Shown here one piece after another: positions 22,266-37,532 of a stretch of 64,000 nt of DNA. The stretch's first letter is position 1; every line of letters begins with the position of its first letter. The stretch comes from a virus: positions 32,001-96,000 of the IMG/VR virus record IMGVR_UViG_3300027763_000032. The stretch is one strand, 5' to 3'. The notes under the pieces were generated by a model. The model saw only the letters and a list, made by a program, of their open reading frames with translations. It searched no databases and was not told the DNA's origin. Made by a program: the position numbers and the translations under genes.

Positions 22266-22294
22266 TTGACATAAGTAAAAAGGTATAGTATAAT
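22266..22294 (+). promoter_or_regulatory. Sigma70-like promoter for dnaJ
   Basis: TTGACA(22266)-17 bp-TATAAT(22289). Confidence 0.8.
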
Positions 22295-22329: not shown

Positions 22330-23160
22330 ATGGACTATTATAATGTATTAGGCGTTCCTAGAGGTGCTAGCCCCGAGGACATTAAAAAAGCCTATAGAAA
22401 ACTAGCCGCCGTACATCATCCAGATAGAGGTGGTGATACACAACAGTTTCAACAACTGCAAGAAGCATACGCAACACTCAGTGACGATCAAAAACGTGCA
22501 GAGTACGACAACCCACAACCACAATTTGGCGGGCCTGGTGGATTCCACTTTAATACCGGAAATATGAATGATATTTTTGGAGGTATGTTTGGGGGACCGT
22601 TTGGAGGATTCCAGCAACAGAGAATGATGCGTAAAAATAAATCTATTAACATTACTGTGCAAATGACTCTTAAAGATATTTTACATGGTAAGGATGTTAT
22701 TGGCAGTATTCGATTGCCTTCCGGTAGAGAACAAGCACTTCAACTTAAAATCCCTCGCGGTGTTGCAATGGGAGATAGTATTAGATTCCACGAAATGGGA
22801 GATGATACTCATCCGCAATTACAGCGTGGAGACCTAATTGCTGTTATTCAAGAAATACCGCATCCACAATTTGAACGCAGGGGAGCAGACCTTTACACTA
22901 CTGCTCCAATATCTGTATTTGATACAATGCTAGGAACATCAATTAAGATTCAAACTATAGAAGATTCAACATTAGATATTACTATACCAGTAGGTATCAA
23001 TCCAGGTACTACTATGTCATGCCATCAATATGGATTGCCTATTGGTATGCACGAACATCGACGTGGTAATTTATATGTTAAAATTGATGTTGTTGTCCCA
23101 AAATCAATAGACTATGAAGATACCGAAACATTGAGGCAATTAAAAGCCAAGTACGGTTGA
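22330..23160 (+). CDS. dnaJ: DnaJ/CbpA-type co-chaperone (no Zn finger)
   Basis: J domain with HPD (HHPDRGG), G/F-rich linker, C-terminal substrate-binding domain. Confidence 0.9.
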   Translation: MDYYNVLGVPRGASPEDIKKAYRKLAAVHHPDRGGDTQQFQQLQEAYATLSDDQKRAEYDNPQPQFGGPGGFHFNTGNMNDIFGGMFGGPFGGFQQQRMMRKNKSINITVQMTLKDILHGKDVIGSIRLPSGREQALQLKIPRGVAMGDSIRFHEMGDDTHPQLQRGDLIAVIQEIPHPQFERRGADLYTTAPISVFDTMLGTSIKIQTIEDSTLDITIPVGINPGTTMSCHQYGLPIGMHEHRRGNLYVKIDVVVPKSIDYEDTETLRQLKAKYG

Positions 23161-23184
23161 CAAGTATTTTAATTCGTGTATAAT
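23157..23184 (+). promoter_or_regulatory. Sigma70-like promoter for clpA
   Basis: TTGACA(23157)-16 bp-TATAAT(23179). Confidence 0.7.
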
Positions 23185-26083: not shown

Positions 26084-26101
26084 CCTAACTTCAAAATAGC
26101 A

Positions 26102-26107
26102 TAAATA
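26102..26107 (+). promoter_or_regulatory. Late promoter core heading the putative head-internal protein cluster
   Basis: caTAAATAc before ATG 26131. Confidence 0.6.
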
Positions 26108-26130: not shown

Positions 26131-26475
26131 ATGAGAATGGATGAAGTTACAAACTCAGCGATCAATCTTGAAGAAGTAGACCTACACGACGATCTACACT
26201 TCTTCATGCATAACGATCCTAATTTTTACCGCAAGGTGTTTTTTCCTATGATCAGTAAGGTCAAAGCACACATCAAAGCAGGTAATCGTTGTCACGACGG
26301 AGTTTTTCGTCCCTGTGTAGATAGAGCCGCAGAAGCTTACTGTAAAAAGTTTAATATTCCCGATAATGAAAAGTCAGTGTTTACTGATGTTGACCGCGAC
26401 GAACTAGCCCGTAAGATTTTTGGGCAAGAGAAAGATCGCATTGAACAGGGTGACTATGATGGAGATGACAAATGA
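26131..26475 (+). CDS. Hypothetical protein (MRMDE N-terminus)
   Basis: First gene after the late promoter. Confidence 0.7.
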   Translation: MRMDEVTNSAINLEEVDLHDDLHFFMHNDPNFYRKVFFPMISKVKAHIKAGNRCHDGVFRPCVDRAAEAYCKKFNIPDNEKSVFTDVDRDELARKIFGQEKDRIEQGDYDGDDK

Positions 26476-27233
26476 TTTTATTAGAAGGCGGAAATGTATT
26501 TGCCAACGCAACTCCATTTGACCACAAAGATGTTCCTGCAATACTTAAAACTGTCAACGGAGCACTAGCCGGTACAGGTATTACTGCTATCCCCGTTGGT
26601 TCTGCGGCAACTCCCAAGCCAGGTAAAACTAGCGGAGACATGGACGTTATTGTTGACGAACAGGCAGTACTAAACTACTTCAAAGCCAAAGATGCTAAGG
26701 CAGGCCGTAAGGCACTAAACGATTATATCAGCAGTAAAGGATTAGAAACTGCACAAAGCGGTATTAATGTACACGTAAATGTTCCAGTCGGTGGAGAGTT
26801 TCATCAAGTAGATGTTATGGTATCAGCTAATGCTGAGAAAGTATCTAAGTTTCACACACATGCTATTCCTGATAACAGTCCGTACAAGGGTGTTAACAAA
26901 CAACTGATGATGGCTATACTAGCCAAACAGAAAAACTACATGTGGTCTGCATGGCAAGGATTGTTTAGTCGTACACCAGAAGGTAAGAAAGGCGACCTAG
27001 TTGCCGACAATTTAGATGATGTTGCTAAACACCTATTTGGACCAAATGGTAGTGCTAAAGATTTAGGTAGTGTAGAAAGTATACTTGCGGCTTTGCCAAA
27101 GCAAGAAGCAGATGCATTGTTAGCAAGAGCTAAAGAAGATGCCAACTGGAAAGAAGTGCCAGTCCGTCAAGAAAGTTATCGCATTGGAACTAACGAATGG
27201 TTCCGTCATATGTTGGATAAGGTACAGCTATGA
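26472..27233 (+). CDS. Pol-beta-superfamily nucleotidyltransferase
   Basis: VGS...SGDMDVIVD and a later QVD third acidic residue; MILLE-GG N-terminus. Confidence 0.65.
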   Translation: MILLEGGNVFANATPFDHKDVPAILKTVNGALAGTGITAIPVGSAATPKPGKTSGDMDVIVDEQAVLNYFKAKDAKAGRKALNDYISSKGLETAQSGINVHVNVPVGGEFHQVDVMVSANAEKVSKFHTHAIPDNSPYKGVNKQLMMAILAKQKNYMWSAWQGLFSRTPEGKKGDLVADNLDDVAKHLFGPNGSAKDLGSVESILAALPKQEADALLARAKEDANWKEVPVRQESYRIGTNEWFRHMLDKVQL

Positions 27234-28372
27234 GATTAAGACAACTGTTTAAAGAAGCAGAAGCACCTAAACAGTTAGGTCGCGCATTTAACCACCTAGA
27301 AGATCTAGTTTTCTTTCATGGTACTAAAGGCACACTTGAAGCACTAAGTCATATTAAAGACTTTGCTAGTCAAGAAGGAGCCAATAGTATTCGCATGAAG
27401 TGGGACGGCAATCCACAAATATATTGGGGTCGTGCAGAAGCCAACGGTCCTTTAATACTTGCAGGACATAATGGCTGGAGCAAAGGTGCTGTAACAGATA
27501 GTCCAGAAGCGGTACAAGATTTTATTGCCAACAAGTCGGGAAGTCCCAAGACTCCTGAAGAGAAAGAAGCAAGAGATAAATTTGCCAGCGAGTTTGCTAG
27601 TCTGTATCCCCTGTTTGACAAAGCTACTCCACGAGACTTTGTAGGCTTTGTGTATGCAGATGGTTTGTTCTTACAACAACCTCCAGCAGATAAAGAAGGC
27701 GTATATAACTTTTGTCCCAATAATAAAAGTCAAACGTGTTATCATGTAAGATCCAATAGCGGATTGGGTAAGCGTATTGCTAATGCACAAGTAATGGTAG
27801 TGGGACATGCGTTCTTTCCAGAGTTTGGTATGCCAGATGCTAGTCAAAAGCCTATCAGTGACTTCAGTCAGTTCAATAGTAATCCACAGTTAATTGTTCT
27901 TGGCCCAATATACAACAGCAAGCCTGTTAAAATTGATACTACAGCAGTCGATGCCATTGAGCAGTTTGCACAGGCGCACGGTGGTCAAATGGATGGATTC
28001 CTACAAGGGCTTCCGGGACTAAGCGACCTAAAAAATATTATCTACACTTATGTAAATCAAACTGCCAAAGCAAAACAGTTAGACAGTCTAAGCCCAAAAC
28101 ATTTTACAGATTGGTTAGCTGTATCAAAGACTAGTCCAGGAAAACAACAAAAGATTAATGATCTAGTTGCGGCAAATCCTACTGCACTGGCAACTATCTT
28201 TACATTGGTAAAAAGAATACAGGCAATGAAAGACGACATCATTGATCAAATTGAAGGCGAACAGGGTGAGATATGGGACACAAATGGCGAAGGTCGTGTT
28301 CGATATGCAGATCAAAATAAACAGCTAGGTCACGTTAAACTTGTACCTCGCAAGCGTTGGACGCCGACCTAA
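27230..28372 (+). CDS. ATP-dependent ligase-like adenylyltransferase-fold protein (DUF6267-like)
   Basis: HLEDL, motif I KWDG, motif IV-like GEG, motif V-like VKLV; MRLRQLFKE N-terminus. Confidence 0.55.
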   Translation: MRLRQLFKEAEAPKQLGRAFNHLEDLVFFHGTKGTLEALSHIKDFASQEGANSIRMKWDGNPQIYWGRAEANGPLILAGHNGWSKGAVTDSPEAVQDFIANKSGSPKTPEEKEARDKFASEFASLYPLFDKATPRDFVGFVYADGLFLQQPPADKEGVYNFCPNNKSQTCYHVRSNSGLGKRIANAQVMVVGHAFFPEFGMPDASQKPISDFSQFNSNPQLIVLGPIYNSKPVKIDTTAVDAIEQFAQAHGGQMDGFLQGLPGLSDLKNIIYTYVNQTAKAKQLDSLSPKHFTDWLAVSKTSPGKQQKINDLVAANPTALATIFTLVKRIQAMKDDIIDQIEGEQGEIWDTNGEGRVRYADQNKQLGHVKLVPRKRWTPT

Positions 28373-28381
28373 GGACTTATT

Positions 28382-29653
28382 ATGAAACTAAGACAGCTAT
28401 TTGAAGGACTAGGACAAGAAGTTGCCATTATATTTGGTCGCTTTAATCCCCCGCACAAGGGACATAGAGCCGCATGGGAACTTGCCGCTAAGAGTCCCGT
28501 TTGGTATGTAGGCACAAACGAAAGCACAGTAGGTCCAAAGGATCCATTACCATATGGTATTAAAGTAGAAGCAATGACTGCCATATGGCCAGAAGTTGAA
28601 GGACATATTATTGCAGAAACAAGTTGGCTAACACTAGCTAGTCTAGTATACGAAAAGCACGGTGATGTTACACTACTATGCCTAACTGATGAAGATTGGG
28701 TTACTAAAACTATTGTACAGTACAATGGTAAAGAAGGTGCCCACGGTTTCTATAATTTTAAAACTATTAAACAAAAACCAACACCACGTTTAAGTTCAGC
28801 TACTGCCCTACGTGATGCAGTTTCTAAAGGTGATCGTGAAGCCTTTGCCACTGCCGCAGGTGTAGATGCTGATACGCCTGTTGCTGGTAAACCGTTCTTT
28901 GATCTAGTAGCAGAATACCTGCTACCATACTCTAATGCACCTGTAAAGAAAACTGCAAAGAAAAAAGTTGCGGCTCCTGTGGAAGGCATAGATGAAGGCT
29001 GGAAGGATTTGGCAATAGGTGGAGCAATGGCTTTGGGCGCTCTAGGTGCAGGACACTCTCAGGCAGCAGACTTGAGTCATTTTAACACACAATATCTACA
29101 ACAAGTGGTCAAAGGAGAACATCCTCGTCCAATGGTTAGCATTGATGATGCTAAACAAGAATTACAGGATAGAGCAAACGGTAAGAAACAAGCTACAGCT
29201 CCTGCTAGAATTGATTTACCGAGCGGATCGAATGGTTTTAGTAAAGAATATCTACAAAAGGCGGCGGACCCAGATCGATTTGGTAGATACATGATTAGCG
29301 TAGAAAAGGCGCAAGAACTATTGAATAAAATAAACAAAGGTACGACAGAAGGTATTATGAGTTTTTTAAAAAGCGAGCCTCCTAAAAAGAAATGGAATCC
29401 TGCTAAAGATTCAATAGTAGTTAGTAACAAAAAAGACGACGAAGCATGGATCAAACTTTTATTAGATAAACATCGTAGAGGTATCGAACTTACAGATCGT
29501 GAATGGAATTCAATCCAGCAATGGAAACTAAAACGTAATATGAAAGGTGAGGATGCGGCAGGTGTAGGTATTATTACTAAACAGAATTCAACTGTGGATG
29601 TAAACAAAGGTACGCCCCGTAAAAATCTCAAAGCATTTAGACTAGTAAAATGA
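28382..29653 (+). CDS. HIGH-family (cytidylyl/NMN adenylyl)transferase with modular C-terminal extension
   Basis: FGRFNPPHKGH, SSATALR; MKLRQLFE N-terminus. Confidence 0.75.
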   Translation: MKLRQLFEGLGQEVAIIFGRFNPPHKGHRAAWELAAKSPVWYVGTNESTVGPKDPLPYGIKVEAMTAIWPEVEGHIIAETSWLTLASLVYEKHGDVTLLCLTDEDWVTKTIVQYNGKEGAHGFYNFKTIKQKPTPRLSSATALRDAVSKGDREAFATAAGVDADTPVAGKPFFDLVAEYLLPYSNAPVKKTAKKKVAAPVEGIDEGWKDLAIGGAMALGALGAGHSQAADLSHFNTQYLQQVVKGEHPRPMVSIDDAKQELQDRANGKKQATAPARIDLPSGSNGFSKEYLQKAADPDRFGRYMISVEKAQELLNKINKGTTEGIMSFLKSEPPKKKWNPAKDSIVVSNKKDDEAWIKLLLDKHRRGIELTDREWNSIQQWKLKRNMKGEDAAGVGIITKQNSTVDVNKGTPRKNLKAFRLVK

Positions 29654-29937
29654 AACAATATAAGATAACAAGTCAAGACTTAAATCAGGATAGCCCTGAT
29701 GATTGTTATCTTGCGCCTGATGATCCTGTACACGAACTAAAAATATTATCAGGCATGGGCGGACTAGGTGCCGAAGCTAGACTACATGAGTATCGTGCTA
29801 ATCAAGGCAGTAACATTAGTGTTACCGGCAACAGTAAGGGCGAGCTAATGAAGAAGCATAACATACAGCCAGGAACTCAAGAATGGTTTAAGCTATGGTT
29901 TAGTCTGCCTTATCTCACAGGGGAGCCACCTGTATGA
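29650..29937 (+). CDS. Hypothetical protein
   Basis: ATGA-coupled; C-terminal NIQPGTQEWFKLWFSLPYLTGE. Confidence 0.7.
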   Translation: MKQYKITSQDLNQDSPDDCYLAPDDPVHELKILSGMGGLGAEARLHEYRANQGSNISVTGNSKGELMKKHNIQPGTQEWFKLWFSLPYLTGEPPV

Positions 29938-30068
29938 GATTACGCGAACTGTTTGAACATAAAAAAGGCATTCGTGCCAAAAAATATAACAAAAAACCTA
30001 AGAAGTTTATTGAACCTATTAAACCTAAAAAAGCGGAGTCGCCGCAAACTACTAAGGAACCATCATGA
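29934..30068 (+). CDS. 44-aa Lys-rich peptide with capsid-targeting-like N-terminus (not in ORF track)
   Basis: MRLRELFE-HKKGIRAKKYNKKPKKFIEPIKPKK...; ATGA overlaps at both ends. Confidence 0.7.
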   Translation: MRLRELFEHKKGIRAKKYNKKPKKFIEPIKPKKAESPQTTKEPS

Positions 30069-30397
30069 AAATACGTGAACTATTAGAAGCAAAAACTAAA
30101 AAAGCCGAAGCACCTAAGCCTCGTAACTTTGTAGCTAAAAATGCTATTAATACAGGCGCTGGCGCACACAAAGACAAAAAGAAAGCCGCAAAGCAAGGTG
30201 ATGCTAAACACAAGAATAAAGACTATGAAATGGCTGAATCTGCTAGTGCAGGTGCAACTAGTGCGGCTAACGTAGGAGTTGGTCCAGTATACCCTAACAA
30301 AACAGGTAAAACTAATAAGAATAAAGACGGTACAACAAAAAATGCGCTGGATGTTAAGGGCACTAACTTACTCACCGGTGGCAGCTTAAAACGCTAA
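30065..30397 (+). CDS. Basic putative head-internal protein
   Basis: MKIRELLE N-terminus; internal MAE-SASAGATS. Confidence 0.7.
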   Translation: MKIRELLEAKTKKAEAPKPRNFVAKNAINTGAGAHKDKKKAAKQGDAKHKNKDYEMAESASAGATSAANVGVGPVYPNKTGKTNKNKDGTTKNALDVKGTNLLTGGSLKR

Positions 30398-30400
30398 ATA
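30395..30400 (+). promoter_or_regulatory. Late promoter core (TAAATA)
   Basis: cTAAATAt before ATG 30424. Confidence 0.55.
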
Positions 30401-30423
30401 TATAAAGATAACGGAGTTACCTC

Positions 30424-31482
30424 ATGCAACCACAAGTACAAATGCAAGGACCAGATGACGAAGGCGGAATGGCCCGTGCTGACCTATATAGAGCTGCCAA
30501 GCACTCTATGAAACTGTTTCAAATGATTCAGAATAACCAACAGTTAGAAGGTTGGGTACAAGCAAAGATTACTAAAGCGGCAGATTACTTAGACAGTATC
30601 TACCACTATATGGAATATCAAGTAAAGTTTGGACAAGGCGCTGTTGCGTCAAGTGTTGATGACATTACTGGAGATATGGAAACTGCCGCTCGTGCCGCAG
30701 AAGAAGCCGATGACGAAAAAACTGATATGGAAGAATCTATGAACTACGAACAAAAACTACAGGCACTATTAGAAAGTGCCGTTAAGAAAGCCAAGAAAGA
30801 TTATGATGGCGATGGCAAAGTTGAAACAAACAAAGATGAAGTTTGGGGATCACGTGCCAAGGCTGCGGCAAAAGCAGGCAAGCCATTCAAAGAAGGTTTC
30901 CCAACTGTCGATGATGCAAAGAAAAATGCACAGGGTACAGCAGGCATGAAGCCAGGCGAAAAGAAAAAGTCTAGCACTGGTGGTACTATTGAAAAGACAG
31001 CAACAGGTATCAAACATACTGCTGGTAAGAACTACAGCGGCAAAGGTGCTGAAGCTGATAAGAAAGTCAAAGAAGAAAAGTTTGATCCATTAAAGCACGT
31101 TAAGAATCCTACTCCAGGTGAGAAGAAAGCCGCTAAAGATGTCAAGCGCGGTAGCTATGCAGATCGTGCGGCAATGTTAAAGTCAGCTGAAAGAGACGGA
31201 CGTTTAAAAGAAGCTGATGCTAAATGTAATCACACTGAAAAGGGCGAGAAGTGTCCAGTACACGGTCTAAAAGAATGTGGTAGTACAATGGCATACGAAG
31301 CGGCAAAACCAAGTGCAGGCATGAGTAAAGGTGCTAAGTCAGCATTAGTTAAAAAAGCTAAAGCTGGCGGTGACGTTGGCAAGCCAGGCAAGAGTTTTGA
31401 CAAAGTAGCCAAGTCAGCAGGTGGTGGTGAGAAAGGCAAACGTATTGCCGCTGCCGCTATGTGGAAGAACGCTGCCAAATAA
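30424..31482 (+). CDS. Modular K/A/E-rich putative head-internal protein
   Basis: Short modules separated by xxE sites; DYDGDGK Ca-binding-like loop; CNH..C.VH...C. Confidence 0.65.
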   Translation: MQPQVQMQGPDDEGGMARADLYRAAKHSMKLFQMIQNNQQLEGWVQAKITKAADYLDSIYHYMEYQVKFGQGAVASSVDDITGDMETAARAAEEADDEKTDMEESMNYEQKLQALLESAVKKAKKDYDGDGKVETNKDEVWGSRAKAAAKAGKPFKEGFPTVDDAKKNAQGTAGMKPGEKKKSSTGGTIEKTATGIKHTAGKNYSGKGAEADKKVKEEKFDPLKHVKNPTPGEKKAAKDVKRGSYADRAAMLKSAERDGRLKEADAKCNHTEKGEKCPVHGLKECGSTMAYEAAKPSAGMSKGAKSALVKKAKAGGDVGKPGKSFDKVAKSAGGGEKGKRIAAAAMWKNAAK

Positions 31483-31495
31483 GGAATAGACAAAA

Positions 31496-32584
31496 ATGGA
31501 TATGAAGAAAATATTACAAGCCTTTGACGGGGCAACTACAAAGAAGCCTGTTCAAGGTGCTAATGATATGAAGAAGTTTGTATCTATTGTTCGAGAAAGT
31601 ACGAATCCTTACACACCTGCACAAGAATCTGTTATTACAAGTTTTGAAGAAGGTTCAGTAGGCGGTGATGCTAATGCATTTTTATTGGCTGCGGATACTA
31701 TTCAAGACGAAGTAATGGCACAGGTCAACAAGATTAAAATCAACGCAGACGAAGCTAGTCTACGTGACATGATGGAAAAGTTTAATGCTTTCATGACTGC
31801 TTACCACAACGTCGGTAAAGGCATTCTACAACCAGACATGTTTAATGACAGCATGGGAGAAAGCGCAGAAGAACAAGTTGATGAAGCAGGTTCATATCGT
31901 CGTCCAGGTAGCTCATCTGCATACGATAGAGATTATGCATCAAGTGTAAGCGGCATGGGCAAGAAGGATTCATTAGCCTATCAACAAGACGGCGGAGCCA
32001 ACGACGAAGGTTGGGGTAAAGAGCCGTATCAAGCACCACAAGACAAACCTAAAATGACCGGCATGTTCTTTTATAATGTGCAACCTGGACAAGAACAAGA
32101 GGCGGCCAGCTTGGGCGTTAAGAAAACCAAGAGCGGTAAATGGGCAAAGACCAAGTATAATACAAGTGGTCGATCATTTAATATGCAAAAAGATCTAGCT
32201 GACAAAGCATTTGGTGTTGGCAAGTGGTGGGCTCCTAAAAACGAAAGCATTGAAGAAGGTACAGAAAATCGTTGTATGCAATGCGGTATGACAAGTTGCA
32301 AGTGTCCAGGTGATAGTTGCAAGTGTAAACCTATTGCAGGATGGGTACCAGGCAAGGGTTTTAAGAAAGCCATGGAAGAAGCTAAAGAAAAAACAATGAG
32401 TCGTGCGGCTAAAGGCAACGAAAAGTATGGCAAGGACGGAATGAAAGAGCTTGCTAAAGCAGGTCGTGAAGGTGCTAGCGAAGAACAGTTAGATAAAATC
32501 CGTGACAAGCATGACAAATATAGCGAAGGCCTAAGTTTTAAAGATTATGTAAACTTAGCAGAAGCTAAGAAAGGTCTAGAATAA
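31496..32584 (+). CDS. Modular putative head-internal protein
   Basis: Multiple xxE-delimited modules; Cys cluster CMQCGMTSCKCPGDSCKC. Confidence 0.65.
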   Translation: MDMKKILQAFDGATTKKPVQGANDMKKFVSIVRESTNPYTPAQESVITSFEEGSVGGDANAFLLAADTIQDEVMAQVNKIKINADEASLRDMMEKFNAFMTAYHNVGKGILQPDMFNDSMGESAEEQVDEAGSYRRPGSSSAYDRDYASSVSGMGKKDSLAYQQDGGANDEGWGKEPYQAPQDKPKMTGMFFYNVQPGQEQEAASLGVKKTKSGKWAKTKYNTSGRSFNMQKDLADKAFGVGKWWAPKNESIEEGTENRCMQCGMTSCKCPGDSCKCKPIAGWVPGKGFKKAMEEAKEKTMSRAAKGNEKYGKDGMKELAKAGREGASEEQLDKIRDKHDKYSEGLSFKDYVNLAEAKKGLE

Positions 32585-32973
32585 TGAGACTATTAGCATT
32601 AGTATTAGCAGTTGCTTTAACTGGCTGTGCAAGTGTTAAAGATATGATTCCTAGTTTTCAGGATCCTAATCAGTCAGCTAAAATTATTGATGTGCGTCAA
32701 AGTGTAGCACAGTTAGATTGCAAACAACCACACGCACCGCAAGTTAAACAGATTAAAGATAACCTACAATGGTTTGAACTATATAGTACTAGCAAAGGTT
32801 CTAGACAAAACGATGTATTACGTTTAATCAAGCCAATGCAAGAGACTGTAGATGATTTTTACAAGCGCAGTACAAGCGAAAAGCAAGGCAGTGATGCATA
32901 TTGCGAGATTAAGAAAAAGTTAATGTCTACACAAGCTGAACGTGCGGCTAGTGCAGTACTAGGGAGATTCTAA
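32584..32973 (+). CDS. Lipoprotein
   Basis: Lipobox ALTGC after a hydrophobic leader. Confidence 0.75.
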   Translation: MRLLALVLAVALTGCASVKDMIPSFQDPNQSAKIIDVRQSVAQLDCKQPHAPQVKQIKDNLQWFELYSTSKGSRQNDVLRLIKPMQETVDDFYKRSTSEKQGSDAYCEIKKKLMSTQAERAASAVLGRF

Positions 32974-33206
32974 TGAACGAACTTATTCAATGTATTAACT
33001 CAGGTAAAGGTTGGGCCGCTGAACGTGCTAACACAGCATATCAGATTGGTCAAGCACTACAAGCTGGACAGATTAATCCAAGCGAAGCAAAAGAATTATT
33101 AGAGGACCTAGTTAGAACAGATAGATTAGATGCTGAAGCAGACGATATGGCTCTTAAGGCCATGTTAGTAACAGGCATCTATGCAGTAATACAAATATGT
33201 GGATAA
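32973..33206 (+). CDS. Hypothetical protein coupled to the lipoprotein gene
   Basis: Overlapping stop/start. Confidence 0.65.
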   Translation: MNELIQCINSGKGWAAERANTAYQIGQALQAGQINPSEAKELLEDLVRTDRLDAEADDMALKAMLVTGIYAVIQICG

Positions 33207-33642
33207 TATGGAACAGTTAATCAACGCATTAAAAATAGCATTTGCTAGCGAATATGCATTTGCACTAAAGGCACAAAACTTTCATTGGAATACAGAGGGT
33301 GCAGACTTCTACGAATTTCACTTGTTGTTTGAAACAATATATGACGAAGTATACGGAAGCATAGATGCATTCGCAGAAAATATTCGTAAGAGCGGAGGTT
33401 ATACTCCGGCAAGTCTAGCTAAGTTTAGTATGCTAACTGTAGTTGAAGATGAAAATGCTGTTCCAGATGCTAGAGCCATGACTGCTGAACTATTAGCAGA
33501 CAGCGATAAATTAGCACAGATGATGGCAATGGTTTACAAGATGGCTGATGCGGCCGGAGAATACGGGCTAAGTAATTTTCTTGCAGAGCGTCAAGATGCA
33601 CATCGCAAGCACAGTTGGTTTTTACGTTCTACACTAAAATGA
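33199..33642 (+). CDS. dps: Dps / DNA-binding ferritin-like protein
   Basis: NFHWNTEGADFYEFHLLFETIYDE...DAFAENIR...RKHSWFL ferroxidase signature. Confidence 0.9.
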   Translation: MDNMEQLINALKIAFASEYAFALKAQNFHWNTEGADFYEFHLLFETIYDEVYGSIDAFAENIRKSGGYTPASLAKFSMLTVVEDENAVPDARAMTAELLADSDKLAQMMAMVYKMADAAGEYGLSNFLAERQDAHRKHSWFLRSTLK

Positions 33643-33716
33643 ACCCAGATCAATATCCAGTATACCCAGAAGATGATGGCTATGACCGTTTCCGCAATCC
33701 TTACAGCCCTGTTTGA
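33639..33716 (+). CDS. Micro-ORF (25 aa)
   Basis: MNPDQYPVYPEDDGYDRFRNPYSPV; ATGA overlap with the dps stop. Confidence 0.45.
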   Translation: MNPDQYPVYPEDDGYDRFRNPYSPV

Positions 33717-33720
33717 CAAT

Positions 33721-33804
33721 ATGATTGAAGGACTTGCTCGCTTTGGTTGGGGCATGGTCGGAGTAGCGTATCCTATTATAGAAAATGATTATGAGAGCAA
33801 ATGA
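33721..33804 (+). CDS. Micro-ORF (27 aa)
   Basis: MIEGLARFGWGMVGVAYPIIENDYESK fills the gap. Confidence 0.35.
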   Translation: MIEGLARFGWGMVGVAYPIIENDYESK

Positions 33805-34513
33805 ATTTATAACTGAATCGTGGAGTCAAAAATACAAAAAGAGTATTAACTGCTCACACCCTAAAGGCTTTAGTCAAAAGGCACACTGTGCCGGCAAGAA
33901 GAAACACAACGAAAGTGTTGAAATGGAAATGGTCTTCCCTGATTGCAATATGTGTGAATCCCATGGCAATGTTATGGAAATTAAGAAAGGTGCTAAAGAC
34001 AGCAACGGCTTTACTAAATGTTGGTCTGGATATCATGCCGCAGGTACAAAACAAGGTAAGAACGGTTCAGTACGTAACTGTGTAAAGAATGAAAGCACAG
34101 AGCTAGAAGAAGAGTTCGATCTTATTGAATCAATTATATCCGACCTAGCTTTACGCAATGGTGTTAACGAAGATGCTGTCTGGGAAGATTTAGAAACACT
34201 CACAGACGATGAGCTATATGTGTTTGCTGTTACACAACCAGTTAATGAAGATTGGCAAAAAGTCAACAAACATGATAAGACTTCAGGTATGAGTCAAAAG
34301 GCTGTTAATGCCTATCGCAGAGAAAACCCAGGTAGTAAATTAAAAACTGCTGTAACGACTAAACCTAGTAAACTAAAAAGAGGTAGCAAAAGTGCCAAAC
34401 GTCGATCAAGCTATTGTTCTAGATCAGCTGGTCAAAAACGTATGCATCATATAGATTGTTCAAAGACTCCAGATAAAGCAATCTGTGCGGCACGTCGTCG
34501 TTGGAACTGTTAA
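33791..34513 (+). CDS. Modular basic/Cys-containing putative head-internal protein
   Basis: MRANEFITE N-terminus; modules WSQKYKKSINCSHPKGFSQKAHC, CWSGY and KRRSSYCSRS...RRRWNC. Confidence 0.7.
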   Translation: MRANEFITESWSQKYKKSINCSHPKGFSQKAHCAGKKKHNESVEMEMVFPDCNMCESHGNVMEIKKGAKDSNGFTKCWSGYHAAGTKQGKNGSVRNCVKNESTELEEEFDLIESIISDLALRNGVNEDAVWEDLETLTDDELYVFAVTQPVNEDWQKVNKHDKTSGMSQKAVNAYRRENPGSKLKTAVTTKPSKLKRGSKSAKRRSSYCSRSAGQKRMHHIDCSKTPDKAICAARRRWNC

Positions 34514-35274
34514 TGCGAGCAAAAGAGTTCCAGCCAAAAAAACTAGTTATCTTTGATATAGATGACACGCTGGTTCATACACAAACTAAAGTCCACGTGG
34601 TCAAAGACGGACAGGTAACTAAAGAACTTAACAGTCATGAGTTTACACACTATAAACTACAACCGGGAGAACAGTTTGATTTTGAGAACTTTCGTAACGC
34701 ACATGACTTTTTCCACAAAAGTAAACCGATCATTCCAATGATGAATCAACTCAAGCAAGACATCGCTACTGGTAACAAAGTAGTAATGGTAACTGCTCGT
34801 GCTGACTTTGATGATAAAGAGCTATTCTTAGATACATTCCGCAAGTATGGTGTAGACATGGCAAAAGTTCATGTTTATCGTGCAGGCAATATGACTGGCA
34901 AGATTCAAACAGAAGAAAAGAAAAAAATTATTATACGTAACTTGTTAGACAAGGACATTTATACTAAAGCCATAATGTATGATGATGCTGTTCCTAACTT
35001 AGAATCATTTGTAGAACTTAAGAAAGAATATCCAAAGACCAAGTTCTATGCCTGGCATGTTAGCTTAGAGGGCAAAGCAAGCGAATATCAACGTACCGAT
35101 GAAAATTTTGCTGATGGAAAGCACCCAGAAGATAAAGGTGATGCTAAACGTCACGGCATTAACACTAAAGCATCAGTAAGCAGTTTACGTAAAACTGCTA
35201 AACAAGGTGGCCGTAAAGGTCAACTAGCACACTGGTTAGCTAACATGAAAGCAGGGCGAGCAAAGAAACATTAA
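34513..35274 (+). CDS. HAD-family phosphatase (T4 Pnkp 3'-phosphatase-like) with a basic C-terminal module
   Basis: IFDIDDTL, VTAR, MYDD motifs; MRAKEF N-terminus; tail after TDE-NFADGK. Confidence 0.75.
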   Translation: MRAKEFQPKKLVIFDIDDTLVHTQTKVHVVKDGQVTKELNSHEFTHYKLQPGEQFDFENFRNAHDFFHKSKPIIPMMNQLKQDIATGNKVVMVTARADFDDKELFLDTFRKYGVDMAKVHVYRAGNMTGKIQTEEKKKIIIRNLLDKDIYTKAIMYDDAVPNLESFVELKKEYPKTKFYAWHVSLEGKASEYQRTDENFADGKHPEDKGDAKRHGINTKASVSSLRKTAKQGGRKGQLAHWLANMKAGRAKKH

Positions 35275-35278
35275 AGAA

Positions 35279-35385
35279 CACACTACCTTAGGACCAGTAC
35301 TCGTTACTGACTCAAGTGTGCGCAGGCTGCTGGCGCAGGACGGCCCGATTCGCTACCGGGAATCCTGGAAGTGAGCATTTTTTTA
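35279..35385 (+). ncRNA. Candidate structured RNA element (unassigned family)
   Basis: GC-rich non-coding island: cacact/agtgtg, cagta/tactg, tgcgc/gcgca, cagga/tcctg and cccg/cggg stems, ending in a T7-8 run. Confidence 0.5.
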
Positions 35386-35389
35386 CGGA

Positions 35390-35395
35390 TAAATA
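35390..35395 (+). promoter_or_regulatory. Late promoter core (TAAATA)
   Basis: gaTAAATA 4 nt before the desaturase ATG. Confidence 0.5.
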
Positions 35396-35399
35396 TTAG

Positions 35400-36104
35400 A
35401 TGATTATATTATATACGCTAATAGTAACACATATTACAATTGTCTGCGTTACCCTGTTCCTACATAGGGGACAAGCACATAGAGGATTTGTGTTTAATCC
35501 CCTGCTAGAACACTTTATGAGATTCTGGCTATGGCTAACAACTGGCATGGTTACTAAACAATGGGTGGCTATACACCGCAAGCATCACAGATTTAGTGAT
35601 GAGTCTGGTGATCCGCATAGTCCTCATGTATATGGTATATGGCGAGTACTATTTAAAGGTGCAGGATTATATCATTCTGCAAGCAAAGACGCTGAAATGA
35701 TCCAACAGTACGGTGTAGGTACACCTGATGATTGGGTCGAACGCAACGTGTACACCCAACACAGTCGCCTGGGCATTCTCCTAATGTTAGTCATAGACTT
35801 ATTGTTATTTGGGCCGTTAGGCATTGTAGTGTGGGGTGTACAAATGATATGGATTCCATTCTGGGCCGCTGGTGTTATTAACGGTGTCGCTCATTGGATA
35901 GGATATCGCAATGGCACTACTAAAGATCAAAGCCGCAATATCAGTCCTTGGGGTATTATAATAGGCGGTGAAGAACTGCATAACAACCATCATCTCGAGC
36001 CGGCAAACCCTAAACTAAGCAGACGTTGGTTTGAGTTTGACTTGGGCTGGATGTGGTTTACTGTATTTAAAACACTTAGACTAGCTAAACTTAGATCAGT
36101 TTAA
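35400..36104 (+). CDS. desA: Delta-9-type membrane fatty acid desaturase
   Basis: His boxes HRGQAH, HRKHH and ELHNNHH; TM segments. Confidence 0.9.
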   Translation: MIILYTLIVTHITIVCVTLFLHRGQAHRGFVFNPLLEHFMRFWLWLTTGMVTKQWVAIHRKHHRFSDESGDPHSPHVYGIWRVLFKGAGLYHSASKDAEMIQQYGVGTPDDWVERNVYTQHSRLGILLMLVIDLLLFGPLGIVVWGVQMIWIPFWAAGVINGVAHWIGYRNGTTKDQSRNISPWGIIIGGEELHNNHHLEPANPKLSRRWFEFDLGWMWFTVFKTLRLAKLRSV

Positions 36105-36772
36105 AATTTATAGTTAAAACGATCAATTAATGGTTTTGAAGAGTCAGCAACTACAATTCTTAAATGATCTGTGTATAATGTTTGATAGCTAACTAAACGA
36201 TTTTCAACATTTTTATGTTGGGCTGTATTTAATAACAGATCAATCTCACTATTTAAATCACCCGACTCTACTAACATCTGTCGAAGGTCAGCGGCAATAT
36301 TCTCAGTAGTTCCTATCTTAGTTGCGGTAGCAATAAAATTACTGCTAACTACATCATACAAACTTCCGCTAGTAGATAACCACATTTCCCAAAACGGTGA
36401 TTGTGAAGTATTCCTTACTAAATCCGAGGACTTAGATAATATTGACACTTTCTTTTTATACATGTCTGTAGGACAGCATAAAGTTTCTGTAAATTCAGCA
36501 AACGACGGAGTATTGCCAAATGCACGGATTAGGGGGTCGATAAAATTGTCTGCTGGATTATAAATTTCCGACCCATAAATTAAATAATGATACAGACTGT
36601 TATACCATTGCCATGGGTTCCTAACAAACAAATATACGTTAGGACGATGAAAATCATTGGATGGTAGCCTATGTCCAAAATCCTCAATTGTTATTGATTT
36701 CAAAACTTCTCTAACCCAGTTCCCACCAGTCTTAGGCATGTGCAGATATAGCGCATTATTAGTAACTATCAT
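36101..36772 (-). CDS. Sulfotransferase-family protein
   Basis: 5'-PSB-like HMPKTGG and 3'-PB-like FVRNPWQWYNSLY; likely start at 36772. Confidence 0.7.
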   Translation of the reverse strand: MIVTNNALYLHMPKTGGNWVREVLKSITIEDFGHRLPSNDFHRPNVYLFVRNPWQWYNSLYHYLIYGSEIYNPADNFIDPLIRAFGNTPSFAEFTETLCCPTDMYKKKVSILSKSSDLVRNTSQSPFWEMWLSTSGSLYDVVSSNFIATATKIGTTENIAADLRQMLVESGDLNSEIDLLLNTAQHKNVENRLVSYQTLYTDHLRIVVADSSKPLIDRFNYKF

Positions 36773-36779
36773 ATAGAAA

Positions 36780-36796
36780 TATTTATATGATAAATA
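36780..36796. promoter_or_regulatory. Back-to-back divergent late promoter cores
   Basis: TATTTA(36780-85)-tatga-TAAATA(36791-96). Confidence 0.6.
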
Positions 36797-36801
36797 ATAG
36801 C

Positions 36802-37185
36802 ATGAGAGCAAAAGAATTTATTGTTGAGCAGGGCAAGGGCGGAATGAAGAAAATTGATCCCGCCTTTAAAGCCGCGATGAAAAATGCCATGACCATTCCT
36901 TCAATGAATCAAAGTACAGGTTCAGCGTACTTAGGGTGGAGAATGAACATTGCTCTTGCAGGTGCTCCTGATTATCCAACCAAGATGGAAGCAGATAACT
37001 GGATTGGTGGAGATCCTTTAATTAGTACATATACAGAAGAAGAATATGAAATGGTCAAGGCCGCATCATTAGCAGTAGGCGGAGGCTCTATTCAAAATTG
37101 GTCTGGCAAACGCAGTGAAGAACTGCCAGATACTAATAAAACAAGCACAGTGGCTAAACCAAAACGTAACAAATACGGCGTATGA
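36802..37185 (+). CDS. Putative head-internal protein
   Basis: MRAKEFIVE N-terminus. Confidence 0.7.
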   Translation: MRAKEFIVEQGKGGMKKIDPAFKAAMKNAMTIPSMNQSTGSAYLGWRMNIALAGAPDYPTKMEADNWIGGDPLISTYTEEEYEMVKAASLAVGGGSIQNWSGKRSEELPDTNKTSTVAKPKRNKYGV

Positions 37186-37496
37186 AAATAAACGAACTAT
37201 TAACAGAAGCACCCATTGACTTTGATCCTAGTGAACCAATGAATCCCTTAGTACATAGTCATCAGGGAGCCAATCCAGGCAAGCTACAATATCGTATGCT
37301 ACGTGCGGCAGGACAGTTAAAGGATCTTGCCAAAAGAGCAGAACACGCTAGTCCTTTAGAATGGGAAATGATTTCCAAAAACTTTTCAGAGCTAGCAATG
37401 AACGTTGAACAGATTAGACATGGTCTAGAAGAACTTGCCGCACAACGTAAAAAGGGTGGCGTCCGTTCAAGAGGCATTGATCCAAACATTGGATAA
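37182..37496 (+). CDS. Putative head-internal protein
   Basis: MKINELLTE N-terminus. Confidence 0.7.
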   Translation: MKINELLTEAPIDFDPSEPMNPLVHSHQGANPGKLQYRMLRAAGQLKDLAKRAEHASPLEWEMISKNFSELAMNVEQIRHGLEELAAQRKKGGVRSRGIDPNIG

Positions 37497-37503
37497 AATA
37501 TAG

Positions 37504-37532
37504 TTGACACAGTCAACACAAGGCTATATAAT
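37504..37532 (+). promoter_or_regulatory. Sigma70-like promoter for the replication genes
   Basis: TTGACA(37504)-17 bp-TATAAT(37527); the -35 lies within the palindrome GTTGAC-aca-GTCAAC. Confidence 0.85.

Follow-up and report, generated by a model that had tools for sequence, protein, structure and literature searches.

A possible head-packaged enzyme set for nucleic-acid ends, centred on a DUF6267 ligase-type protein, in a T4-like phage contig

What do three adjacent nucleotidyltransferase genes do in a T4-like phage, and where do their products act? The question is raised by a stretch of 64,000 nucleotides (nt) of viral DNA, called the window here, which is positions 32,001 to 96,000 of the IMG/VR record IMGVR_UViG_3300027763_000032 and part of a 121-kb viral contig; all positions below are window coordinates. 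The genes, named ORF A, ORF B and ORF C, are predicted to encode a family-X-like polymerase, a ligase-type protein of the family DUF6267 and a nucleotidyltransferase with a HIGH motif, respectively. A gene for a HAD phosphatase lies 5 kb downstream. An earlier note on this DNA had proposed that the four enzymes are delivered by the virion and repair RNA or restore nucleotide pools. The reading that we tentatively prefer, though it falls somewhat short of probable, is a head-packaged kit that heals, fills and seals breaks in the phage's own DNA.

Three coupled nucleotidyltransferase genes

The operon consists of the following features.

26101..26107, plus strand: late-promoter-like motif ATAAATA, 30 nt 5' of p114, with which the operon begins
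26131..26475, plus strand: p114, a small conserved protein with a tag-like start (MRMDEV), recognised by conserved gene order
26472..27233, plus strand: ORF A, predicted minimal family-X (Pol beta-like) polymerase of palm and thumb, 253 amino acids (aa), from the AlphaFold2 (AF2) model, Foldseek, VIA and motifs
27230..28372, plus strand: ORF B, DUF6267, predicted ligase-type covalent nucleotidyltransferase without an OB domain, 380 aa, from PF19782, AF2, VIA and invariant residues
28382..29653, plus strand: ORF C, predicted HIGH-motif nucleotidyltransferase with a variable C-terminal extension, from phrog_3041, PDB profile matches and motifs

The stop of p114 overlaps the start of ORF A in an ATGA, the same overlap joins ORF A and ORF B, and ORF C starts 9 nt beyond the end of ORF B. 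ORFs A, B and C are translationally coupled, as the earlier note had stated, and the motifs that it quoted for the four enzymes were present and conserved family-wide. Its module end at 29100 cuts ORF C and was corrected to 29653. The p114 protein gave no match in family searches or in the Atlas.

ORF A gave no match in Pfam, PHROG, NCBIfam or PDB sequence searches. Its AF2 model, built from an alignment of 38 homologues, had a predicted local distance difference test (pLDDT) value of 91. Among the matches listed, Foldseek returned only Pol lambda and Pol beta (best E 1.7e-7, probability 1.0, about 200 columns). In an exhaustive VIA search the top eight were all family-X polymerases: Pol beta palm-thumb (three entries), Pol lambda, Leishmania Pol beta, Pol X of African swine fever virus (ASFV), Thermus PolX and TdT. 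The Z score was 11.4 over 175 aa against the Pol beta palm-thumb and 10.2 over 162 of 176 residues against ASFV Pol X. The predicted thumb is packed on the palm, and Pol X chains covered residues 1-205 of the model with 160-177 aa aligned at Z 10-11.4. The residues G43, S54, G55, D56, D58 and D114 were conserved in the 38 homologues, within the segments VGS, SGDMDV and QVDVM, and D56, D58 and D114 are the predicted catalytic aspartates. The 8-kDa dRP-lyase and HhH fingers domains were not present in the model, whose 253 aa consist of palm, thumb and a short C-terminal tail. By its model, ORF A is a minimal palm-and-thumb family-X polymerase look-alike, which is a narrower assignment than a generic Pol-beta nucleotidyltransferase.

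The fold named in the earlier note was thus upheld, and its suggestion of a CCA-adding or cGAS-like enzyme was not. TUTases, CD-NTases, CCA-adding enzymes and poly(A) polymerases aligned with the palm of ORF A only, over about 100 aa, and a CCA-adding, cGAS or CD-NTase identity was rejected for this reason. The match over palm and thumb favours DNA gap filling over tRNA repair or nucleotide signalling. It also bears on the serious but unlikely alternative of a packaged RNA repair kit, whose enzymes would act like T4 Pnkp and Rnl1 on tRNA or other RNA that the host has cut, healing and sealing it, with ORF A as a terminal or CCA-type adder. Against that role, ORF A aligns with family-X DNA polymerases through palm and thumb (Z 10-11, 160-175 aa), whereas the adders reach the palm alone.

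The nearest viral parallel is ASFV Pol X, which likewise lacks the dRP-lyase and fingers domains and consists of palm and thumb only. In both systems the Pol X is paired with a ligase, and the virion of ASFV carries its repair enzymes. The two systems also differ. ORF A is about 16% identical to ASFV Pol X and has no Pfam Pol X match, its partner is the OB-less DUF6267 protein whereas the ASFV ligase is a DNA ligase with an OB domain, and the ASFV system also has an AP endonuclease. A 2022 review of phage DNA polymerases gave ASFV as the sole viral family-X example (PMC8775771).

ORF B belongs to DUF6267 (PF19782, E 8.5e-16), a family that comprised 389 clusters at 50% identity in an exhaustive HMMER search and occurred in 464 phage records. 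A tblastn search of ORF B against the phage collection found S-WAM2 alone, at 22% identity. The AF2 model, based on 67 diverse members, had a pLDDT of 95. Foldseek against BFVD returned uncharacterised phage homologues and weak RNA ligase rows only, and the ligase fold was revealed by the exhaustive VIA search only. There, the best 20 matches comprised 17 polynucleotide ligases and one capping enzyme (Z 5.1-7.2, 145-199 aa). The leaders were NgrRnl (Z 7.2), REL1 (6.4), T4 Rnl2 (6.3), Trl1 (6.1) and T7 ligase (5.8), so that Trl1, T7 and other DNA ligases and T4 Rnl1 stood behind the nick-sealing RNA ligases.

Motif I of ORF B, K57-W58-D59-G60, was at least 90% conserved in 67 sequences that reach down to 25% identity with ORF B. 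The other conserved ligase motifs were D144 (III), E354-G355 (IV) and K370 (V), and the family also conserves HLED at residues 22-25, upstream of Lys57. A helical insert of about 100 residues, at about 237-342, separates the N-terminal motifs from motifs IV and V, and accounts in part for the modest Z scores. The model stops at residue 380, 10 residues past motif V. Because the chain ends directly after motifs IV and V, ORF B has no C-terminal OB domain or motif VI, and its architecture is therefore RNA-ligase-like and not that of a classical DNA ligase. The candidates "DNA ligase sensu stricto" and "capping enzyme" were rejected for lack of this domain. By its model, ORF B is an OB-less ligase-type nucleotidyltransferase, in agreement with the earlier note.

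This architecture makes RNA repair the main rival of a DNA repair kit: the top structural neighbours of ORF B were the RNA ligases NgrRnl, REL1, Rnl2, Trl1 and Rnl1. However, RNA and DNA ligases differed by only 1-2 Z units, and the ranking therefore does not discriminate between them. ORF B shares with the nick-sealing ligases of the Rnl2/Rnl5 type (NgrRnl, T. brucei REL1, T4 Rnl2) the covalent nucleotidyltransferase fold, the KxDG, EG and K motifs and the absence of a C-terminal OB domain. It differs from them by the helical insert, HLED and a lack of detectable sequence similarity. In the literature searched on DUF6267, no paper and no ligase or repair reading were found.

The HIGH domain of ORF C spans residues 1-186 (28382-28939) and matched the phrog_3041 cytidyltransferase at 7e-13. 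The Pfam model PF01467 remained under its gathering threshold on ORF C (0.0043, 17.7 bits against a cut-off of 21), and reached 35.6 bits on the homologue of cyanophage S-SZBM1. NCBIfam gave only the generic cyt_tran_rel domain, and the Atlas structural neighbour was a viral CTP_transf_like cluster (TM 0.93). F18, G19, R20, N22, P23, H25, G27 and H28 were invariant, and the motifs GRFNPPHKGH and SSATALR were present, which bears out the HIGH-type nucleotidyltransferase of the earlier note. A profile of 13 homologues matched NadR (1.2e-4), NadM (2e-3) and the archaeal NMNAT MJ0541 (0.03) in the PDB. NadR/NadM-type nicotinamide mononucleotide (NMN) adenylyltransferases are thus the nearest, and an NMNAT-like function is the best but weak guess. 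Conservation in relatives was confined to residues 1-185, and this domain was 81-100% identical across hundreds of metagenomic relatives. The C-terminal 240 residues were variable, with a Gly/Ala-rich hydrophobic segment and a further domain.

Two observations concern this extension. An EGWKD-hydrophobic segment at residues 205-228 also occurs in HAD orthologues of two related loci (L023 and L042). Residues 290-384 (29249-29533) weakly resembled the C-terminal part of KwaB of the Kiwa defence (DUF4868; E 0.003-0.004 in two libraries), which may be a chance or decoy-like fragment. This was the single weak match in PADLOC, where signalling families were unmatched.

The NMNAT matches raise the possibility of a counter-defence through nucleotide pools, in which ORF C would rebuild NAD+ and the products of ORFs A and B would synthesise nucleotide signals or change them. 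The best PDB profile matches of ORF C, which are the NMNAT domains of NadR, NadM and the archaeal enzyme, and its two motifs are in keeping with it. However, these matches are weak, the cluster showed neither a Nampt nor a Nudix partner, and the signalling families of the PADLOC type were unmatched. The repeated fusion of the C domain to ligase-fold and Pol X-like domains, given below, argues for polynucleotide chemistry. We consider a counter-defence of this kind quite improbable.

Conserved order, fusions and the HAD phosphatase

The completeness of the 121-kb contig was estimated at 33%, which gives a full genome of about 360 kb. It encodes a T4-type DNA polymerase and clamp loader, and the polymerase was nearest to those of jumbo phages (Phosso 52%, Atu_ph07 47%, Vibrio phage 2.275.O 44%, Rak2-like 43%). 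The phage collection contained no megablast match to the region. In metagenomic relatives of 269-365 kb the gene order DnaJ-ClpA-p217-p114-A-B-C was kept, and from ClpA onwards it was kept in many IMG/VR loci too. Among 80 related viral loci, A was upstream of B in 56 of 75 and C was downstream of B in 50 of 71. The linkage in relatives that the earlier note had asked about was thus found as conserved order and as fusions.

Domain architectures were determined by iterated profile searches over 150 DUF6267 cluster representatives. B stood alone in 99, and the remainder were A-B (18), B-C (12), A-B-C (11), B-A (3), C-A-B (3), B-A-A (2), A-B-C-C (1) and C-HAD-A-B (1). The A domain was fused in 39 of the 150 and the C domain in 28. 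One protein, P0291, holds A, B and C in 1118 aa (checked by hand), P0242 holds A and B, and in P0319 the HAD domain is fused with C, A and B. Since the three enzymes occur as gene fusions, they are functionally coupled, and B is the hub because many lineages keep only A-B or only B-C. RNA repair also draws on fusions, in that proteins structurally related to ORF C carry an AAA_33 kinase and an NTP_transf_2 domain in the same chain.

The pair of B and C extends to cultured T4-like cyanophages, in which DUF6267 adjoins or is fused to a "cytitidyltransferase". In S-SZBM1 the DUF6267 gene (E 3.7e-130) lies beside the cytidylyltransferase gene (gp135/gp136), and in S-PM2 (S-PM2d138) B and C are fused. 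These proteins are genuinely homologous to those of ORF B and ORF C, but their only annotations are "hypothetical" and "auxiliary metabolic gene", and most lack a Pol X-like partner. The S-SZBM1 gp134 gene, upstream of DUF6267, was unconvincing as an ORF A homologue. No paper was found in the literature searched on "cytitidyltransferase".

The fourth enzyme, the HAD protein (253 aa), has the nucleophile motif DIDDT and matched phrog_415, annotated as polynucleotide kinase, at 3.1e-11, and HAD-IA at 4.7e-5. Against PDB sequences it gave generic HAD matches only. Its gene lies directly 3' of C in several relatives, and this position and the C-HAD-A-B fusion agree with the view of the earlier note that the phosphatase is part of the set. 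The phrog_415 annotation is a further point for RNA repair, as is the lack of an OB domain in ORF B. On the other side, family searches found no P-loop 5'-kinase domain fused to the HAD protein, and no kinase was found in the window, which leaves the analogy with T4 Pnkp and Rnl1 incomplete: a HAD phosphatase and a ligase-like enzyme are there, and the kinase is not. RNA repair is considered less likely than the DNA kit.

HAD orthologues in two related loci are long mosaics. Those at L023:8257-9642 and L042:8035-9882 consist of the HAD domain, a Gly-rich GPGPYGLYGWD linker, a Gly/Ala-rich hydrophobic segment and a terminal domain. The terminal domain is a GH19 muralytic domain in L023 (5.6e-14) and an HExxH putative metallopeptidase in L042. 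Ejected proteins are typically modular in this way. In many related loci, other proteins carry the basic C-terminal tail that the HAD protein of the window has at residues 197-251 (35121-35274), seen as tblastn matches that are partial and cover the tail only.

N-terminal tags and the case for packaging

The strict tag pattern used was M-[KR]-x-x-[EQ]-[LF]. It occurred at eight gene starts of the 121-kb contig, all of them inside one 10-kb cluster at 27230-37496. The tagged proteins are ORF B (MRLRQLFKEAE), ORF C (MKLRQLFEG), the HAD protein and p240, p127, p104, p110 and p44. The tag was found on 46 of 129 full-length DUF6267 representatives, compared to 0.7% at internal Met positions, and by this sequence count its occurrence is well beyond chance. 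In DUF6267 representatives it is usually followed by a hydrophobic-x-Glu that ends at residue 8-10. All close ORF C orthologues keep it as M-x-LRQLFE. The claim of the earlier note that all three coupled genes are tagged held for B and C and not for A. Ahead of every A domain, whether free or fused, stands a hydrophobic-x-Glu and after it GGN[VI]F, and this hydrophobic-x-Glu looks like a retained cleavage site.

The peptide resembles that of the T4 internal proteins and Alt, which is about 10 residues long, has the same pattern and ends in hydrophobic-x-Glu; the T4 internal proteins are cleaved after this sequence for capsid targeting (CTS), MKTYQEFIAE. This phage also belongs to a T4-like lineage, which has a protease of the gp21 type and head genes in the T4 order. 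It differs from T4 in its cargo. Here the putative cargo is Pol X-like, ligase-like, HIGH nucleotidyltransferase and HAD proteins, whereas that of T4 consists of small inhibitors or an ADP-ribosyltransferase.

The partial contig to which the window belongs did not yield a gp21-type protease or head-core genes. A prohead protease of this type (PF03420, about 2e-27) was found in a sister contig, whose ORF B is 100% identical, and in a relative whose ORF B is 95% identical. The sister contig has, in order, the portal, a 78-aa MILRELF protein, an acidic 272-aa protein, the protease, an MLDALKQLFE protein at the scaffold position and the major capsid protein, which is the T4 head gene order. The 78-aa protein beside the portal occupies the position of T4 gp67 and has the tag. 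The major capsid protein contains a YLSE/SA site, which we take to be near the cut position of T4 gp23.

The full T4 late promoter, TATAAATA, was not enriched but depleted (1 match against 6.8 expected), and the shorter motif ATAAATA was used in its place. It lies 26-36 nt upstream of the tail-fibre, portal, 1035-aa and other structural genes in the contig and the sister contig (G000 and G001), and also upstream of p114. The operon is thus preceded by a late-promoter-like motif and may be late. Perfect 12/12 sigma-70 promoters (TTGACA-N16/17-TATAAT) occurred at 22266-22294, 23157-23184 and 37504-37532, ahead of DnaJ, of ClpA and of the block of DsbA and DNA polymerase genes. The tagged cluster lies between them and contains none, which suggests an early/late mosaic.

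Published virion data concern the cyanophage homologues of ORF C. The cytidylyltransferases of S-SZBM1 and S-CREM2 were detected in purified virions by mass spectrometry (PMC9146016) and proteomics (PMC10665884), respectively. Both carry the tag, as MRFRQFIIEA in S-SZBM1 and MKNFSSFLTEA in S-CREM2. Together with the CTS-like tags, the tagged head-core gene, the gp21-type protease and the late-type promoter, these data agree with the head-packaged idea of the earlier note. The enzymes are probably inside the virus particle, since they are fused in other phages and bear T4-style head-packaging tags.

A late promoter would also suit enzymes that are not injected but act late in the infected cell, for example by mending the nicks and gaps of concatemeric DNA before or during headful packaging, with an N-terminal motif that serves localisation to the assembly site or expression. 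ORF A and some DUF6267 homologues are untagged, and DUF6267 is not in the S-SZBM1 virion list, as this role would lead one to expect. However, the tag is common to the head-core gene beside the portal and resembles a scaffold N-terminus, two tagged ORF C homologues were found in purified virions, and the GH19 fusion on a HAD orthologue suggests a role in cell entry. Such a late intracellular role looks distinctly unlikely.

The other features of the tagged cluster are as follows.

29934..30397, plus strand: two small Lys-rich tagged proteins (MRLRELFEH..., MKIRELLEA...) from the tag census, the second of which matches DUF7230 and phrog_1359
33791..34513, plus strand: tagged 240-aa protein p240 (MRANEFITE...) from the tag census, with the Cys-containing module WSQKYKKSINC...AHCAG and a C-terminal DUF6321
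34513..35274, plus strand: tagged HAD phosphatase (MRAKEF..., DIDDT), from phrog_415 and HAD-IA
36802..37496, plus strand: two more small tagged proteins (MRAKEFIVE..., MKINELLTE...) from the tag census

The small Lys-rich tagged proteins are typical of internal proteins and would also fit a reading in which the enzymes themselves have no catalytic activity and serve inside the head as scaffold or as ballast that binds DNA. This is highly improbable: the catalytic residues are invariant or nearly so across representatives that are only 25-50% identical to the window proteins, and the ORF C domain shows the high identity given above in its metagenomic relatives.

Other observations were made in and around the cluster. 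Successive Lys/Ala/Glu-rich low-complexity proteins of 110, 352 and 362 aa, with the strict tag on the first only, fill 30065-32584 and are reminiscent of basic internal head proteins. An untagged Dps/ferritin-like gene (PF00210, 1.3e-21) lies at 33199-33642 within the cluster, and its position is conserved in relatives. The mobile basic module WSxKYKxSINCxxPKGFSQ[KR]AHC follows the tag in p240 (residues 10-40, 33818-33910), stands ahead of DUF6267 in P0263 and lies within the HAD protein of L042. In relatives without ORF C, another tagged protein (L049:9232-9948, MYIREFTEG...) has the Pol-beta-type nucleotidyltransferase motif GS...SDLDL, so that this phage group seems to have head tags on several unrelated nucleotidyltransferases.

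Proposed mechanism and its meaning

In the head-packaged DNA repair kit that we tentatively prefer, the p114-A-B-C operon and the tagged HAD gene would form a multi-enzyme set for nucleic-acid ends that is made late. T4-type N-terminal capsid-targeting peptides would send it into the prohead, where a gp21-type protease would cut the tags after hydrophobic-x-Glu, and it would then accompany the DNA into the cell. The HAD protein would heal by taking off 3'-phosphates. The minimal Pol X would fill by closing short gaps or by adding one nucleotide, possibly a ribonucleotide, and the DUF6267 enzyme would seal by joining the nick via Lys57-AMP. The HIGH NMNAT-like domain may make or recycle the adenylyl donor, NAD+ or ATP. 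The most likely substrate would be the phage genome, at nicks, gaps or ends that exist in the virion or arise on entry. A DNA substrate is favoured because the Pol X thumb was matched and the cargo sits among packaged DNA.

Bacterial LigD and the mammalian set of PNKP, Pol beta and Lig3 likewise combine a 3'-healing phosphatase, a gap-filling polymerase and a ligase, often in one polypeptide. The protein families differ, in that LigD has an AEP polymerase and an OB-containing ligase, and the phage kit has no Ku or kinase and an extra HIGH nucleotidyltransferase domain without a counterpart there. The RNA-ligase-like architecture of ORF B suggests that it may seal at a 3'-ribonucleotide, as bacterial LigD does.

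Several results weigh against this DNA repair kit. Concerning the polymerase, the Pfam Pol X palm (PF14792) and thumb (PF14791) models gave no match on the contig at E<=10, and the palm model reached 0.0042 on one fused homologue. Because the curated models do not match, ORF A is a member of family X at the level of structure and motifs and not of sequence models. Searches of ORF A and ORF B against PDB chains, with single sequences and with profiles, gave nothing meaningful, and Foldseek with the ORF B model against the PDB gave nothing below 1e-3. The nearest structures of ORF B are RNA ligases at a modest Z of 5-7, and its OB domain is missing, as in RNA ligases. The NMNAT matches of ORF C lie mostly over its first 60 or so residues, at E 1e-4 to 0.03, and no 5'-kinase was found anywhere in the window. 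Concerning packaging, the start of ORF A (MILLEGGNVF) is part of its own conserved domain and is no full tag, with MILLE at most a 5-residue L-x-E remnant. The reported S-SZBM1 virion proteome did not include DUF6267 (PMC9146016), and the DUF6267 protein of that phage is untagged. Finally, many relatives have only A-B or B-C, and the full heal-fill-seal set is therefore not universal.

CTS-targeted internal proteins of T4 and viral repair sets of Pol X and ligase are known already. The literature searched appears to contain no description of the present cargo, of DUF6267 as a ligase or of a Pol X in a phage. It is possible, though doubtful, that DUF6267 and its partners are an unrecognised capsid-delivered machine for DNA break repair. 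Such a machine would comprise the first bacteriophage family-X polymerase, a new OB-less ligase family and a donor supplied by the fused NMNAT-like domain, and would be injected to heal, fill and seal or join ends before phage gene expression. The same doubt extends to the joint claim of a wide distribution of this system, which would take in T4-like cyanophages, jumbo phages of fresh and marine waters, and some of the records of pelagiphages and methylophilales phages.

Of the genes without an assigned role in marine T4-like cyanophages, DUF6267 and the "cytitidyltransferase" beside it are among the best conserved, and the latter is usually classed as an auxiliary metabolic gene for cell-wall chemistry. 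A reading of the two as a ligase-type and an adenylyl-donor enzyme, together with the frequent Pol X-like fusions and the head-targeting peptide, alters which assays fit these genes. The short tag offers a handle for spotting packaged proteins in uncultured T4-like genomes. If the repair reading is true, the T4-type internal-protein cargo would widen beyond small inhibitors to a complete set of repair enzymes, family-X polymerases would include one from bacteriophages, and the kit would provide genome rescue at entry for sunlight-exposed aquatic phages or for phages under nicking defences.

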